A stretch of DNA of 64,000 bases from Bacilli bacterium (GCA_036653735.1 JAVVTI010000001.1:8881-72880), one strand, 5' to 3'; positions 19,767-26,173 are shown, numbered from the stretch's first letter. The notes: a model not told the origin generated them from the sequence alone. Numbers and translations are program-made.

Positions 19767-20455
19767 TGGGAAAAGCAATGTCTGATAAAGATTTTAATGA
19801 TATTATTGCTATTAAATGTGGAATATCTTCTATTACAGTAAAAAGAGTATGGAATAATATAAAAAAATTAATTGTATCAGAGTTACAAAATAACTCGTAC
19901 ATAAGAATAGAAAATTTTGGAAAATTTGAACTTATTAAAAAAGGAGGGAAAGATGAATGGTTTGAAAATCAGATGGGAATACAAGAACAGCGCTATGTTG
20001 AGCCATTTGATTTTGTAGAGTTTAGTCCAAGTGCAAATTTTATAAACTCTGTAAATAATGGACTTGTTGATTCATGGTCTAAATATAGATTTGAAAATGA
20101 TGAATTAACTACTTATGATAAAATTTTATTAGATATAGAAACAGACCTCACTGTAGATGAAGTATTATTTGATTTATTAAATAAGAAAAAAAAAAGACAA
20201 ATAAAAGAAGCTACTAGGAATAAACTTTATCAACAAGGGCAAAATTTAGGAAAAACAGAATTGACAAAAGGTAAACCGATTAGATGTGTTACGAATGGAG
20301 TTGAATATAAATCTGTTTATAGTGCATCTCAAGCTTTAAATATTAGAGCGATTAAAATGTATCAAAATTTTAATAAAGGTATTTTTTTAATAGATGGGTA
20401 TGAGTTTGAATTTATCAATGAAATAGAGGAGAAAAATAGTAATGACGAATTGTGA
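19766..20455 (+). CDS. HU-like N-terminal domain protein with a C-terminal extension
   Basis: DIIAIKCGISSITVKRVWNNIKKLIVSELQNNSYIRIENFGKFEL is HU-like. Translationally coupled to the previous gene. Confidence 0.35.
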   Translation: MGKAMSDKDFNDIIAIKCGISSITVKRVWNNIKKLIVSELQNNSYIRIENFGKFELIKKGGKDEWFENQMGIQEQRYVEPFDFVEFSPSANFINSVNNGLVDSWSKYRFENDELTTYDKILLDIETDLTVDEVLFDLLNKKKKRQIKEATRNKLYQQGQNLGKTELTKGKPIRCVTNGVEYKSVYSASQALNIRAIKMYQNFNKGIFLIDGYEFEFINEIEEKNSNDEL

Positions 20456-20624
20456 TAAAGAATTTTTAACAATTGACAAAACAGGTGTTCTCGATGAAAA
20501 TGAAAACGGAGAATTAATATTGTATATTGAATTGAAAGATGTTAGAAAAGAATACAATGTTGTGGAACTATTAAAAAGAATGTTAGGTTCAACGGTTCAG
20601 ATTAAATCTGTAAATGAGGGATAA
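20442..20624 (+). CDS. Hypothetical small protein
   Basis: 60-aa ORF overlapping the previous stop. Confidence 0.3.
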   Translation: MTNCDKEFLTIDKTGVLDENENGELILYIELKDVRKEYNVVELLKRMLGSTVQIKSVNEG

Positions 20625-20769
20625 TCCATGACAGATTATAAAAAATTTGAAAATGAAAGTGATGAAGAACTAATTTACCGAATTTGTTCAGAAAAGGATA
20701 TTATCGGTTCATGGCAAGATGTGGGTGATATTTTAAAGAGGTTCAAAGCAGAAATCCTCTAGGTCTTTA

Positions 20770-22390
20770 GCCTATATAAGAAAGAGTTACCAAAACATTA
20801 TTGGACAGAGAATACTTTCTTTACAGATGGATATTTTGTATTAACAATTGGAGAAGTAAGTAGTAAAATGTTGAAAAGTATATAGAAAATCAAGGATAAA
20901 AGAGAAAATTAATAGCTAGGAAGGAAGTGATTGCAGATGCTAATAGCATATAAATACAGATTATATCCAAATAAGTCTCAACAAGAATATTTCTCAAAGT
21001 GTTTCGGTTGTGTGCGTTTCATCTATAATCATATGCTTTCAGATAAGATTGACTATTATAAAGAAACAAAACAAAAACTCAATAACACACCTGCTCAATA
21101 TAAAAAGGATTTTGAGTGGTTAAAAGAAGTAGATTCTCTCGCTCTTGCAAATACACAGATGAATTTACAAACTGCTTATAATAATTTCTTCAAACGTCCA
21201 GATGTGGGATTTCCGAAATTTAAAAGTAAGAAGAATAATCATTTGTCTTACACTACGAATAATCAAGGTGGGAATATCTATGTTTCAGACAGGTACATAA
21301 AACTTCCTAAAATTGGATTAGTTAAAGTTAAGAAACACAGAGATTTCAATGGTATTATCAAGTCTGTAACTGTTTCTAAGAATCCATCTGGTAAATATTT
21401 TGTATCAGTTCTAGTAGACCAAGAAGAAAAAGTGAAACTGCCTACTACTGATTCTAAAATTGGAATTGATTTAGGAATTAAAGAGTTCTGCATAACCTCC
21501 AATGGAGAAATGATTAAGAACCAAAAGTATCTTCGTAAATCTGAAAAGAGATTAAGTAAGTCGCAAAAGGATTTGTCTCGTGCAGTAAAAGGAAGTAATA
21601 ACAGAAATAAAGCAAGAATTAAAATTGCTAAAAAGCACGAAAAGATTGTGAATCAACGCAAAGATTTCTTAAACAAATTGTCTATAAGTATGATTCGTGA
21701 GAACCAAACAATTGCCTTAGAGACATTAAAAGTTAAGAATATGATGAGTAATCATAAACTAGCAAAATCTATAGCAGATGTATCTTGGAGTGAGTTTGTT
21801 CGGCAATTAGAGTACAAATCTAAATGGTATGGGCGAGAAATCGTAAAAATTGATACATGGTATCCAAGTTCACAAATTTGTTCTAACTGTGGGCATAAAG
21901 ATGGGAAAAAAGCATTGTCGATTAGAGAATGGACTTGCTCTAAATGTGGCACACATCACGAAAGAGATATAAACGCTGCAATAAATATATTAAACGAAGG
22001 ACTAAGGCAACTTATAGACTAAGGAGTAAGTAAGAAGTGTTGGAGCAACACGGATAGCCTGTGTAAACTTGTGCAGTTATGCATATTGAGCAGGAAACAA
22101 GCAAGTCTTTAGCTTGGTTGCGGTTCACATTAAATATTTCAGCCCTAATTGGTTAAAGGTTAAACCCAATGGTTATTGAATAGCACTTATCCACAATTAA
22201 AATAAATAGTGCTATAAACCACACGTTTTTACAGTATTGTGTGTTAAAAAATTAAAATTTACTGTTTGATTAAGTCTTTTACTGATGACAAAGGAAGAGT
22301 GAGATATCAATCCTAGTAAAATGATGGGATAGGATATCAAGATTTGTGGAGTTGGCTAAAGGATAAGTACCAATTGTCAAAAATCCTTAT
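20770..22390 (+). mobile_element. TnpB-only (IS1341-like) insertion element; boundaries approximate; structured right-end / omega-RNA region at 22023-22390
   Basis: TnpB ORF. A 370-bp GC-richer non-coding right end. The 9-mer GTCTTTAGC occurs near both flanks (20763, 22089). A 44-aa ORF (20627-20761) ends abruptly at the left flank. Confidence 0.4.
20931..22022 (+). CDS. tnpB: IS200/IS605-family accessory protein TnpB (OrfB, RuvC-like plus Zn finger)
   Basis: N-terminal [15 protein letters not shown] ..., a central RuvC-like region, and C-terminal CSNCGH ... CSKCG Zn finger. 363 aa. No tnpA adjacent. Confidence 0.9.
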
Positions 22391-22392
22391 AA

Positions 22393-22463
22393 TGGGAATT
22401 AGTATAATGGTAGTACACCACCTTTTGACGGTGATAGTAGCGGTTCAAATCCACTATTCCTAG
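22393..22463 (+). tRNA. tRNA-Gln-like, anticodon TTG (71 nt)
   Basis: Manual fold: acceptor TGGGAAT / ATTCCTA; D-arm GTAT-AATGGTA-GTAC; anticodon stem CCACC / GGTGA; loop TTTTGAC; T-arm AGCGG-TTCAAAT-CCACT. A few mismatches remain. Confidence 0.5.
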
Positions 22464-22488
22464 CTAAATAAAAGAAAGGACAAATAAT

Positions 22489-22788
22489 ATGAATCAGGTA
22501 TATCAAAATGGAAATTTTAAAATATATCATTCAAAAAACGGATATATTGTACATAATAGCGAAATGAAAAATTTTGCTCACTCTCATATTAAAAATTTTT
22601 CAGCTTGTAAAATGCTTATTAGTCTATCTTTGATGAAAAAAGTTCCTAATAACTTAAATGAATATTTTTTAATTAGTTTATTAAAAATAAATGATAATAA
22701 AGAATATTCACAAAAAATAAAAGAATTGTTATTGTCAAGAAGTAATAAAAAAAAGAAAAATATTATAGTTCTAAGAAAGGAAGAATAA
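22489..22788 (+). CDS. Hypothetical protein
   Basis: 99-aa ORF with an RBS immediately after the tRNA. Confidence 0.4.
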   Translation: MNQVYQNGNFKIYHSKNGYIVHNSEMKNFAHSHIKNFSACKMLISLSLMKKVPNNLNEYFLISLLKINDNKEYSQKIKELLLSRSNKKKKNIIVLRKEE

Positions 22789-22792
22789 ATTA

Positions 22793-22978
22793 GTGACCTC
22801 AAGTGAAATAAAAAGTTTCATACAAGTTAGAAAAGGTGAATTATGTAGTGACGAAATTTTAAGTATAATAGATATAAAAAAGAATCCTCAAATAAATCAT
22901 ATTATTTATGAAAATAATAAATATACAATGTGGGATTATGAAGGAAATGAATTTAATTTTATGTTTCGTAATTGGTAA
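22793..22978 (+). CDS. Hypothetical small protein
   Basis: 61-aa ORF. Confidence 0.3.
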   Translation: MTSSEIKSFIQVRKGELCSDEILSIIDIKKNPQINHIIYENNKYTMWDYEGNEFNFMFRNW

Positions 22979-23367
22979 AATTTAAAGTAAAAAAGTTTGT
23001 CAGATAATTAGTTTAACTTTTATATTATTTAATAAGGATATAGCCTATAATATATCCTTATTTTTTTTAATATAAAAGTTAAAAAATATCCTTTATACTT
23101 TAGAAAAAGTGATTGTATTTTAAAAAAAATAAACGTTTTTAAAGAATTTATTGTTTTTACTTGTAAATATAGAAAGAAAATTTATTTTCATAAAACATGA
23201 TACATTACAAAAATGCAAACCAAAGTATAAAAATTTATCATATAGTAAGACATTTATAATAAAAAAAAGAGTTGTATGAATTATAAGAGAATTTATTATA
23301 TGAATTATGGTATTAGGATTATTAAAATCTTGGAATTTAGCATGTTATGTAGAAACAAGGATAAGGA

Positions 23368-24312
23368 GTGATATTTATCGAAGAACAAAAAATAACTAAA
23401 GAAGGAGTTAGGATAAAAAAAGAGAGAGTTTCTCATTGTATTGATTGTATGAGAGATTATCCCATAAGTAATTTTTATCCATCAAAAGGTTTTTTTTTAG
23501 GAAATGCAAAAGTAATACCTTATTGTAAAAGTTGTTGTGAACAAATATTGAGAGAAAATTTAAAACGTTGTGGTACTTTAGAATCTGCATTATGGATAAC
23601 TTGTTCTAAATTAGATGTGCCCTTTATAAAACGCGTCTTTGAATCAACTGTTAAATATAAAAATAATTATCAAGAAACAAGTGGAAAAGATGATTCAGAC
23701 TATAATATTTTTGGTTATTACTATATGTTTTTATGGGGAACTAAAAGTATGCAAAAGAAAGGGGAAGAATGGAATGATTTTAAAGCTACTGATGTTGCCA
23801 TGGGAGAAATACAAGTTTTAAAAAAAAGTGAAGATGCTTTAAAATTAGAAATGGAAAAGTTTTCTCTTGATTGGGGTCATCGAGCAGATATTGAAGATTA
23901 TCAATATTTAGAATATGAATTTGATAGATTGACAAAAGATAAACCATTAAAACCACAAGAAGAAACATTATATAGAAAACTTTGTATTATTGAATTAGTA
24001 ATGCGTAAAAAAGAGGAAACAAATGAATCTACCAATGTAGAGCAATCTCAAATGTTAAATTTAATGAAAACTTTAAAAATAGATAATTTTTCAGAAGATA
24101 AGGACTTGTCTTTAGTAGAGAGAATGTTAGAAAATCAAATAGCAATTATTGAAAAAGAAAAACCATGTTTTCATTATAAAGATTTAAAAAAAAATGCTGA
24201 TTTTGTAGGAAGAGGGAGATATTGGGAAGACCACGTTATTAGACCTCTAAGAAATTTATTATGTAATACTAAAGAATATAAAATAAAAAGAGATAACCAA
24301 GAGGAAATATGA
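23368..24312 (+). CDS. Zn-finger protein immediately upstream of terL; putative terminase small subunit by position
   Basis: N-terminal CIDC ... CKSCC Zn ribbon. 314 aa. Translationally coupled to the large terminase. Confidence 0.3.
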   Translation: MIFIEEQKITKEGVRIKKERVSHCIDCMRDYPISNFYPSKGFFLGNAKVIPYCKSCCEQILRENLKRCGTLESALWITCSKLDVPFIKRVFESTVKYKNNYQETSGKDDSDYNIFGYYYMFLWGTKSMQKKGEEWNDFKATDVAMGEIQVLKKSEDALKLEMEKFSLDWGHRADIEDYQYLEYEFDRLTKDKPLKPQEETLYRKLCIIELVMRKKEETNESTNVEQSQMLNLMKTLKIDNFSEDKDLSLVERMLENQIAIIEKEKPCFHYKDLKKNADFVGRGRYWEDHVIRPLRNLLCNTKEYKIKRDNQEEI

Positions 24313-24313
24313 T

Positions 24314-26173
24314 ATGGTTACTTTAAAAGAATTAATTGAAGCTAGACGAAAAAAAGAAAATAAACGTAAAAAACCCTTAACGAAAGAACAACATGAAGAA
24401 CAAATCATTGATTGGTGTGATTTTTATAGGAAAAACTGGGATATTTATGCAGAACAAGATTTAGGAATAACAGCTCTTCACCCATTTCAAAGTATTGTAT
24501 TATATTTAGCTGGAATATCACAAGTGTTTTATTTTATGTGTAGCAGAGGAATGTCAAAATCGTTCCTATCTGCTTTAATTTCTTTTATTATATGTTTATT
24601 ATATCCAAATTCAGAAATAGTAATAACAGCAACAACCATGAAAACAGCAAAAAAAATGGTTAAAAATAAAATGCAAAAAGAATTATGTGGAGATTATTCA
24701 CCTAAATTAAAATATCTATATGAACATGATTTAATACATTTTACGATAGGTGATGAAGATATAAGAGTTGATTTTAAAATGAATAATTCATGGATATTAG
24801 TTTTACCGGAAACAGATAGTTCAAGAGGTGAACGTGTAACTGGTCTTATATTTGAAGAATATCGACAATCAAAACCAAGTATTGTAAATTCAGTGTTTAT
24901 CCCAATGAGAAGAGCGAGAAGAGCCGCATATCTATTTAAAGAAGAATTTAAAGAAGATAAAAGACTAATTGAAAATGCGCGGATTATTTATCTTACATCA
25001 ACAGGTTATAAATTTGAACATTTTTGGGAAACTTGGAAAACAGTAATAGATAAAATGTTTGACAAAAATAGTAAAACAAAATATATTGGATTTGCGGGTG
25101 ACATTGTTACATCAGTGTATCATAATCTAGTCACAGAAGAGGACTTTGAATTAGTAAAGAATGACCAATCCATTTCTGAAATGGAAATAGAAATGGAATA
25201 TTATAATGTTCCACAAGGCGAAATAGAAGGTTCTTATTATTCTATGAAACAGTTTAAAGACAATAGTGTTATAGAAAATGGATTTATTCCCCCTACGTAT
25301 GAAGAATTTGTAGAAAAATATGACAGAGGAAATATTCCGTATTTTAGGGAAAAAAAAGATGATGAAATAAGAATTATTTATGTTGATTTTGCATTTTCAG
25401 ATACTGTAATAAAGAATCAAGATAATGATAATACTGTAATTGGTTGTATGAGTGGATATCCAAACGAAGAAAGAGTAAGAATATTAAGAAATGTGGACTA
25501 TATGGAAACATACAGTGGAGGAGATAAAGAGAAGTCTTTAAAGAGGATTAGAGAATTATTCTATCTTTATTGTGCTGATTATTTTATTTATGATAACTTA
25601 AACGGAGGGCAGGATAGATTTGTTGATTTATCTAAGCCATATTATCATGAAGAACTAGGTATTGAAATGAATGGATTTGGTATAAGTACTGAAACTAATA
25701 TTACAGATGGTTTCTGTGAAGAAAATAAAGTTGCTAATTTATCAAATGGAGTGATAGATTCTAATTCAATACCAGTGTCAATTCCAGTTGTAGGGAGTTC
25801 AGAGCGAAATAATAATTATCATATTGTCATGAAAAATTCATTGAAAAATAATACAATTCGATTTCTTATGGACGAAATAGAATTAAAGAAAAAATTATTA
25901 AATGATAAAGAATTTATGTTTATGGATAGTTATTCAAAATCTAGGAGATTAATTGGACATGTTCAAATAGACTTAATGATTAATGAAGCCATAAAATTAG
26001 AAAAAAAAATAGTTAAGGGTTATATTAAATTAGAAGAACCTAGGACTGGAACAAAAGATAGAATAGTTGCCACTGAATATGGTAATTATTTTTTCTATTT
26101 AAAAGAGTTAGAAATGGTAAAAAAAGAACAAGAAAATACAACGGATTTAGAAGATATACAATTAGTATATTAA
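24314..26173 (+). CDS. terL: Terminase large subunit
   Basis: 619 aa. N-terminal ATPase with a Walker-A-like CSRGMSKSF. C-terminal nuclease-like region (IYVDFAFSDT). Position is before the portal. Confidence 0.7.
   Translation: MVTLKELIEARRKKENKRKKPLTKEQHEEQIIDWCDFYRKNWDIYAEQDLGITALHPFQSIVLYLAGISQVFYFMCSRGMSKSFLSALISFIICLLYPNSEIVITATTMKTAKKMVKNKMQKELCGDYSPKLKYLYEHDLIHFTIGDEDIRVDFKMNNSWILVLPETDSSRGERVTGLIFEEYRQSKPSIVNSVFIPMRRARRAAYLFKEEFKEDKRLIENARIIYLTSTGYKFEHFWETWKTVIDKMFDKNSKTKYIGFAGDIVTSVYHNLVTEEDFELVKNDQSISEMEIEMEYYNVPQGEIEGSYYSMKQFKDNSVIENGFIPPTYEEFVEKYDRGNIPYFREKKDDEIRIIYVDFAFSDTVIKNQDNDNTVIGCMSGYPNEERVRILRNVDYMETYSGGDKEKSLKRIRELFYLYCADYFIYDNLNGGQDRFVDLSKPYYHEELGIEMNGFGISTETNITDGFCEENKVANLSNGVIDSNSIPVSIPVVGSSERNNNYHIVMKNSLKNNTIRFLMDEIELKKKLLNDKEFMFMDSYSKSRRLIGHVQIDLMINEAIKLEKKIVKGYIKLEEPRTGTKDRIVATEYGNYFFYLKELEMVKKEQENTTDLEDIQLVY

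Follow-up and report, generated by a model that had tools for sequence, protein, structure and literature searches.

A probably immobilised deletion derivative of an IS200/IS605-family element with an intact tnpB gene and a predicted omega RNA in a phage genome

According to the mechanism established for TnpB and its omega RNA, the guide corresponds to the 16-20 nt that lie past the right end of the element, and the TAM is the same sequence as the TnpA target (PMC10055086). The described systems closest to the one reported here are ISDra2, IS608 and ISGst of G. stearothermophilus (PMC10055086). They share with our element a TnpB of the NF038281 type with a Y1 tnpA gene upstream (present in the sister copies of our element), subterminal hairpins at both ends, which are a family feature, insertion without duplication on the 3′ side of a pentamer rich in A and T (TTTAA in our element and TTTAT in ISGst2; PMC10055086), and an omega RNA that extends over the 3′ end of tnpB and finishes at the right-end boundary. 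In contrast to them, the copy studied here has been left with a small part of tnpA and one half of the left-end hairpin, and appears to be neither autonomous nor mobilisable. Its architecture matches that of IS605-group elements, and decay is the sole departure.

IS605 derivatives that have two intact ends and carry tnpB and an omega RNA but no working transposase gene are also known (PMC10055086), and one of them, the IMG/VR locus L001, belongs to our comparison set. In L001, however, a complete left-end hairpin stands directly upstream of tnpB, so that this copy is in principle movable in trans, whereas the copy described below is presumably not. Proteins of the same TnpB family are annotated as "transposase" in cultured phages, for example in Clostridium phage c-st (63% identity) and in S. 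thermophilus phages (57%), and altogether 429 GenBank phage records match TnpB genes. Two further systems deserve mention as phage-borne parallels. TldR (10.1101/2023.11.30.569447) is likewise an immobile TnpB homologue encoded by phages together with a guide RNA, but it has lost its nuclease and its guide matches a host promoter, whereas here the catalytic triad is intact, the protein has its full length and the predicted guide is local flanking DNA. We therefore rejected identity with TldR. The free-standing homing endonuclease SegB of phage T4 (cited in PMC13565253) is encoded beside a phage tRNA region, and our locus resembles it in having a nuclease gene near a phage tRNA gene. A SegB-like bias of inheritance is conjectural in our case, and recognition would be guided by RNA instead of protein. 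Identity with an IStron was rejected as well, since an Rfam search of positions 20000-23500 revealed no intron family at E values up to 1.

We analysed a stretch of 64,000 nucleotides from a Bacilli bacterium assembly (GCA_036653735.1, JAVVTI010000001.1:8881-72880), referred to as the window; all positions are counted from its first letter. The genes adjacent to the element are of phage type and include those of the terminase large subunit and the portal protein. Sequence identical to the window is present in the NCBI contig JAVXKW010000004.1 and in Logan contigs (runs SRR25820353-372), and all of these represent the same phage. Look-ups with TnpB and with the neighbouring 60-aa and 99-aa proteins likewise returned 100%-identical copies of this phage only, and the GenBank phage set held no near-identical DNA for this region. 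In IMG/VR we found no relatives of the two flanking proteins, one HU-like and the other YonG-like, and the relatives of the terminase large subunit (TerL) found there are distant (54-57%).

We conclude, with a probability of about 85%, that the window contains an IS200/IS605-family insertion sequence which is a single, immobilised deletion derivative residing in a phage genome. The element is a defective member of a family that occurs frequently in Firmicutes of the gut and in their large phages. Its features are collected in Table 1.

Table 1. Features of the insertion sequence and of the adjoining phage DNA (positions in the window).
Feature	Position	Strand	Remarks
yonJ-like N-terminal stump	20628-20736	+	codons 1-36 of a ~400-aa metallophosphoesterase/exonuclease gene
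Target / TAM TTTAA	20732-20736	+	directly 5′ of the left end
IS200/IS605-family IS	20737-22128	+	1,392 bp; left boundary +/-2 nt
Truncated left end	20737-20774	+	spacer, 5′ arm 20754-20763, loop TCTTTAG 20764-20770, CCTA of the 3′ arm
tnpA 3′ remnant (Y1 / IS200-type transposase)	20775-20899	+	~41 codons, frameshifted near the end
tnpB	20937-22022	+	intact, 361 aa from ATG; 363 aa if translated from TTG at 20931
Omega RNA scaffold (predicted)	21930-22128	+	covers the final ~93 nt of tnpB plus the 106 non-coding bp of the right end
Omega RNA helices	21930-35/22122-27, 22037-42/22046-51, 22058-62/22090-94, 22070-75/22080-85, 22097-22100/22118-22121	+	loop of the last helix TCTTTAG
Predicted guide segment	22129-22148	+	ATTAAATATTTCAGCCCTAA, read through from the right end; native phage DNA
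Phage spacer between IS and tRNA	22129-22392	+	264 bp; 85% identical to L095:1586-1843, which has no IS
tRNA-Gln, anticodon UUG	22393-22464	+	ARAGORN; Rfam RF00005, 53.4 bits vs gathering score 29

The ends of the element were set by comparison with related copies. A scan of IMG/VR with the TnpB protein yielded 80 loci, many of them at 80-85% protein identity. The nearest copies that we found share 82-85% of the protein and ~77-80% of the DNA sequence and come from Lachnospiraceae genomes and large gut phages; the bacterial copies closest to the window TnpB (82-85% protein identity) belong to Lachnospiraceae and other Firmicutes, and not to the Mycoplasmoidaceae, to which the source MAG is assigned. 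In BLASTN searches and a multiple alignment of ~30 related copies, conservation halts at position 22128 (...GGTTCAC) and the flanks differ. Beyond GTTCAC the flanking sequences are unrelated and different in each of more than 30 copies, which marks the family as mobile. All exact matches to the window copy, on the other hand, lie at the same phage locus.

On the opposite side, TTTAA precedes AGCAGAAATCC by 8 nt in related copies that represent no fewer than 8 independent insertion contexts. Full-length sisters have the order TTTAA, 8 nt, AGCAGAAATCC, hairpin and a gene for a 138-aa Y1 transposase, and their left end aligns with positions 20745-20774 of the window. The spacer between TTTAA and the hairpin comprises 10 nt in the window as compared with 8 nt in the other copies, and for this reason the left boundary is uncertain by ~2 nt. 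The flanks of the window element contain no target-site duplication.

The first-pass annotation had noticed a sequence repeated near both flanks, and this observation is correct: GTCTTTAGC occurs twice in the window, at 20763-20771 and 22105-22113. We considered it as a target duplication and rejected this possibility, because it constitutes the loop and the closing bases common to the left-end and right-end hairpins. In the sisters, the left-end hairpin is a perfect one of 10-11 bp, ATCCACTAGG-TCTTTAG-CCTAGTGGAT, and intact relatives also carry AGCAGAAATCCACTAGG-TCTTTAG-CCTAGTGGAT. Folding of the left-end DNA gives -12.6 kcal/mol (z -5.8) for the full-length sister L055 and -11.2 kcal/mol (z -4.9) for L001, as opposed to -4.0 kcal/mol (z -0.55) for the corresponding stretch of the window, where the 3′ arm ends after 4 nt. 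The right-end hairpin is present in the window (z -3.1), and the left-end stretch is unique within it.

The half-hairpin is followed by what is left of tnpA. The translated remnant, YKKELPKHYWTENTFFTDGYFVLTIGEVSS, matches positions 86-115 of the 121 in the Y1_Tnp profile with an E value of 5.7e-4, which is under the gathering score, whereas the 138-aa TnpA of L055 matches Y1_Tnp at 6.6e-33 and also NCBIfam transpos_IS200. A nucleotide alignment with the tnpA 3′ ends of L002, L014, L017, L028, L031 and L033 revealed a 1-nt gap in the window just 5′ of the tnpA stop codon. The window element has no intact tnpA, as only the ~41 C-terminal codons of this gene persist, and relative to L055 the window copy is ~326 bp shorter. 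It had been proposed that this is primarily a TnpB-only element; the tnpA remnant and the half-hairpin identify it instead as a deletion derivative. The element formerly had the full layout, with left-end hairpin, tnpA, tnpB and the omega RNA with the right-end hairpin; a later internal deletion of ~0.33 kb removed the 3′ arm of the left-end hairpin together with the first ~97 codons of tnpA, and spared tnpB as well as the right end with its omega RNA scaffold. Since the left-end hairpin is incomplete, a Y1 TnpA should be unable to excise this copy, even in trans. Judging by the known biology of the family, the copy is presumably no longer excisable by TnpA.

The window TnpB matches three Pfam families above their cut-offs (PF12323, PF01385 and PF07282, i.e. 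HTH_OrfB_IS605, OrfB_IS605 and the Cas12f1-like TNB domain), reaches 506.5 bits against a cut-off of 425 with NCBIfam IS200_TnpB (NF038281), and is matched by the ISDra2 TnpB structures 8exa and 8h1j with an E value of 5e-91. This agrees with the first-pass annotation, which had recognised a phage-borne IS200/IS605-family element with TnpB and without a working TnpA. A residue-level alignment, made to the designed TnpB-family nuclease 9yyg and not to ISDra2 itself, locates the RuvC triad at D178 (GIDLGI), E262 (ALETLK) and D344 (HERDIN), and both CxxC pairs of the zinc finger are present (C315/C318 and C334/C337). With its catalytic D/E/D residues and zinc finger preserved, TnpB looks functional. 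Compared with copies that are 83-85% identical, tnpB has a dN/dS of ~0.05-0.08, a value that averages the long divergence from these copies and says little about the time since tnpA was lost.

The part of the right end that is non-coding and owned by the IS amounts to 106 bp (22023-22128). An alignment of 29 distinct copies, spanning the right end and the ~95 nt of tnpB that precede it, produced a consensus structure in which 32 pairs make up 7 helices. Pairing is retained in 98.3% of the cells of this alignment, with compensatory changes in 16 pairs. None of 500 shuffled controls reached any of the five measures, and when the pairing partners were slid, pairing fell to 27-42% with at most 7 compensatory pairs. 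All helices are intact in the window copy, and the long-range pairing of 21930-35 with 22122-27, which adjoins the guide junction, is invariant. Covariation bears out the earlier suggestion of an omega RNA encoded by the right end. This structure is visible by comparison only: the single-sequence fold of the region is uninformative (z -0.54), and at 20000-23500 Rfam returned no omega RNA, ROOL or other family for the scaffold. With its 16 covarying pairs, the omega RNA looks functional.

The position of the right-end boundary, read in the light of how TnpB is known to work (PMC10055086), predicts ATTAAATATTTCAGCC(CTAA) as the guide. Within the window, no second target of this guide with up to 3 mismatches occurs beyond chance, and the JGI metagenomes contain no exact 24-mer of either the guide or the empty site.

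The IS-free relative that is crucial for the following comparisons, L095, was found by searching for homologues of the HU-like protein encoded upstream of the element (80% protein identity) and originates from the same run series, SRR258203xx; it is the only IS-free relative that we found. The two sequences run collinear on either side of the element, with 85-90% nucleotide identity, and L095 has no tnpB. Where the window has positions 20678-22135, 102 nt stand in L095. The first-pass annotation had advised comparing the locus with relatives that lack the insertion, and L095 indeed displays an empty site, with TTTAA followed 5 nt further on by renewed homology; the ends as such were set by the ~30 copies. 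The L095 sequence at this site reads TTTAA+CAACAATTGCAACCCTGA; of its first 20 positions, ~8 do not agree with the guide, and hence a perfect natural target was not seen. Loss of the element from L095, as opposed to its gain in the lineage of the window, is conceivable, because IS605 excision is seamless.

The 264-bp spacer and the tRNA-Gln gene to the right of the element are native to the phage, because both are present in L095 (with 93% identity for the tRNA) and because distant relatives keep tRNA-Gln in a syntenic position. In two of them, L082 and L083, tRNA-Gln(UUG) heads a tRNA cluster. The tRNA itself, which had been predicted from the sequence, is real according to both ARAGORN and Rfam, and it is the sole Rfam match in the whole window. 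In the codon usage of the phage, CAA (415) prevails over CAG (70). The spacer folds no better than its shuffled versions (z -1.37), Rfam searches at E values up to 10 gave chance-level matches only, and IMG/VR holds no exact counterpart of a conserved 34-nt core. A promoter-like sequence, TTGAAT-16-TAAAAT, is located in the spacer at 22176-22203; such sites are not enriched over shuffled sequences.

These data contradict a model in which a TnpB-only element would end at ~22390 against the tRNA, would have inserted in or against the tRNA locus, and would take its guide from the tRNA gene. It is true that both genes exist, with 370 bp between tnpB and the tRNA. However, conservation among the copies ends at 22128, so the right-end region is 106 bp long rather than the 370 bp (22023-22390) first assigned to it; the tRNA does not abut the element but begins 264 bp away; and the sequence from 22129 through the tRNA recurs in L095, which has no IS, at 85-93% identity, which argues against any special relation of the insertion to the tRNA locus. 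Because the right end lies at 22128 and the tRNA 264 bp further, the tRNA is not the source of the guide: the flank that would supply it (22129 to ~22148) is spacer DNA at least 245 bp upstream of the tRNA. We give this model next to no credence. The spacer and tRNA are ancestral phage DNA, upstream of which the IS merely landed. The description of the whole region as structured and GC-richer needs to be narrowed accordingly: covariation justifies the former term for the IS part but the fold of the spacer does not, and the enrichment in GC is modest, with a fraction of 0.38 at 21900-22199 that declines to 0.30 by 22100-22399.

To the left of the element, the distant relatives L082, L083, L097 and L098 show the gene order 904-aa protein, HU-like protein, small ORF, yonJ-like gene, non-coding RNA/tRNAs, yonG-like gene and TerL. 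The yonJ-like product is tagged as PF27386 YonJ_N, and that of L082 matches PHROG 284, "exonuclease". The gene is intact in L078, L082, L097 and L098, with the same synteny in the last three. In a tblastn search with the 402-aa protein of L078, residues 4-39 align with positions 20628-20735 of the window at 75% identity, and none of the other ~360 codons has a counterpart in the window. This explains the 44-aa ORF that had been noted at the left boundary. The ORF exists (20628-20762), but it crosses the boundary and extends over 26 nt of the left end of the IS, where it meets the stop codon TAG (20760-20762). Its homology to yonJ halts at TTTAA, and the final residues and the stop come from the IS left end. 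A 94-aa variant of this ORF (L162) proved to be a gene-calling artefact, as the DNA is identical.

The question had also been raised whether the insertion disrupted a gene. The IS does sit at the break of the yonJ-like gene, but it need not be the cause of the break, since in the IS-free L095 the gene is also a stump, which arose through a different internal deletion and retains ~17 N-terminal codons and an apparent C-terminal end, ...GKNYTIVLN*. Because of this stump in L095, the yonJ-like gene is decaying in this lineage irrespective of the IS. Additionally, the 10-nt sequence GATATTTTAA, which lies at yonJ codons 34-37 in the window, is also located just 3′ of the stop codon of the yonJ remnant in L095. 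This would fit a deletion between direct repeats in which the IS had no part.

If tnpB and the right end were transcribed together, the product would be an omega RNA with the 3′ guide ATTAAATATTTCAGCC..., and TnpB loaded with it would cut TTTAA+ATTAAATATTTCAGCC, the sequence of the allele without IS in a sibling phage. An IS-bearing genome would then serve as the template for repair, so that the element would be copied in, resulting in homing or retention. Both the cutting and the copying-in are extrapolated from what is known about the biology of the family. The opposite possibility is that the copy is wholly dead, that the reading frame of tnpB survives only because decay set in recently, and that neither the element nor the phage benefits from it. 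Such a reading fits the destruction of tnpA and of the left-end hairpin, the presence of the exact TnpB protein in this one phage only (by exact-protein look-ups), the lack of a matching target in the window and in the JGI metagenomes, and the decay of the neighbouring yonJ, which suggests that the region tolerates loss. Nevertheless, we regard it as possible but unlikely: the 361-codon ORF has no lesion and all its catalytic and zinc-binding residues are in place, every helix of the omega RNA is intact, and the adjacent 125-bp tnpA remnant is already frameshifted while tnpB is not.

It can also be imagined that the phage has domesticated TnpB and keeps the immobilised nuclease as a weapon guided by RNA or a marker-exclusion device, directed at relatives that infect the same cell and comparable to homing endonucleases of the free-standing type, or as a TldR-like regulator, a concept set out in PMC13565253. 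The combination of an immobilised element with an intact nuclease and RNA would suit this idea, and so would the occurrence of an IS-free relative in samples of the same run series (SRR258203xx) and the fact that the first ~20 nt of the L095 target are 60% identical, as against 85% for the rest of the spacer. But the last comparison involves a single sequence, and the additional divergence borders on a stretch that has been rearranged, as the yonJ deletions differ between the phages. Moreover, TldR regulators are without RuvC catalysis, whereas D/E/D is intact here, the guide is plain adjacent flank like that of any IS605 element, and nothing distinguishes domestication from ordinary selfish homing. 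Taken as a whole, domestication seems very improbable to us. The more specific proposal that the phage retains TnpB as an RNA-guided homing or marker-exclusion nuclease, which cuts IS-free siblings at TTTAA+ATTAAATATTTCAGCC and thereby favours the inheritance of itself and of the tRNA-Gln region, is quite improbable too; if it were true, the system would be an RNA-guided analogue of T4 SegB, and the divergence of the L095 target would represent escape. Our preferred reading remains that of a single immobilised deletion derivative whose TnpB and omega RNA look functional.

These results correct the annotation of the locus by giving the element its true ends, by assigning the spacer and the tRNA to phage DNA, and by explaining both GTCTTTAGC and the 44-aa ORF. 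For the family, the TTTAA target and the omega RNA architecture are now defined by comparison. Finally, a copy that can no longer transpose but has kept an intact RNA-guided nuclease offers a natural case in which to ask whether TnpB alone can maintain an element and spread it between co-infecting phages.

In a more distant syntenic relative of the window phage, L082, a full-length ROOL RNA fills the interval from the yonJ-like gene to the tRNA-Gln gene. This site is the syntenic equivalent of the 264-bp spacer that separates the IS from the tRNA in the window. With Rfam, ROOL was found neither in the window nor in L095, its closest IS-free relative. Another syntenic relative, L097, carries a non-coding gap that has no match in Rfam and a perfect TTGACA-17-TATAAT promoter at its start. 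The gap may thus encode a large RNA of a kind not yet described.

Large RNAs and other features of the relatives, the window and other IS copies
Feature	Location	Strand	Details
ROOL RNA, full-length	L082:6894-7509 (IMGVR_UViG_3300032038_000162)		RF03087, 287 bits
1.2-kb non-coding gap	L097:5842-7071		yonJ to tRNA-Met
6A RNA motif	L098:8066-8117		RF02925, 70 bits; after the L098 tRNAs
Apparently split terminase large-subunit region	L098:11134-14179; L097:8155-9443		
Promoter-like TTGAAT-16-TAAAAT	window 22176-22203		within the spacer; kept in L095
Extra 65-aa HTH-type ORF	L055:3648-3845	minus	between tnpA and tnpB
Distant IS copies	L071:3820; L075:3510		TnpB ~50% identical

The promoter-like site in the spacer may serve as the promoter of tRNA-Gln; in this AT-rich region, such sites show no enrichment over shuffled sequences. 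Downstream, the terminase large subunit of L097 and of a further relative, L098, is apparently in two pieces (179 aa and 446 aa) flanking a LAGLIDADG endonuclease gene, which suggests an intron or a free-standing homing endonuclease inside terL. In the window, terL (24314-26173) is in one piece.

Contigs from the Logan assemblies break at two places in this locus. In run SRR25820363, one contig (L088) ends at 20741 and another (L091) starts at 20740, 4 nt inside the left end of the IS. This could be a sign of an IS-free allele or an assembly artefact. In other Logan contigs, the last base is 22302 or the first is 22283; both positions lie within a 45-nt stretch identical in the window phage and the L095-type phage, and these breaks are probably the result of graph branching between co-occurring phages.

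The window is also identical to JAVXKW010000004.1 of NCBI assembly GCA_036647175.1, a MAG labelled Malacoplasma sp. In the Malacoplasma group, TGA is normally read as Trp. Among the 41 large ORFs of the window, TGA serves as the stop codon in four and occurs in frame in none. The nearest IS copies are found in Clostridia. The Malacoplasma host assignment or the binning may be wrong.

Some sister IS copies, such as L055 with its full-length tnpA, have an additional HTH-type ORF encoded on the strand opposite to tnpA and tnpB; the window copy lacks this ORF, which may encode an accessory regulator of the element. The distant copies L071 and L075 retain TTTAA, the 8-nt spacer, AGCAGAAATCC and ...GGGATGAATG, and their hairpin stem differs in sequence with compensating changes. 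Thus, the left-end architecture and the TTTAA target are conserved over a wide clade.
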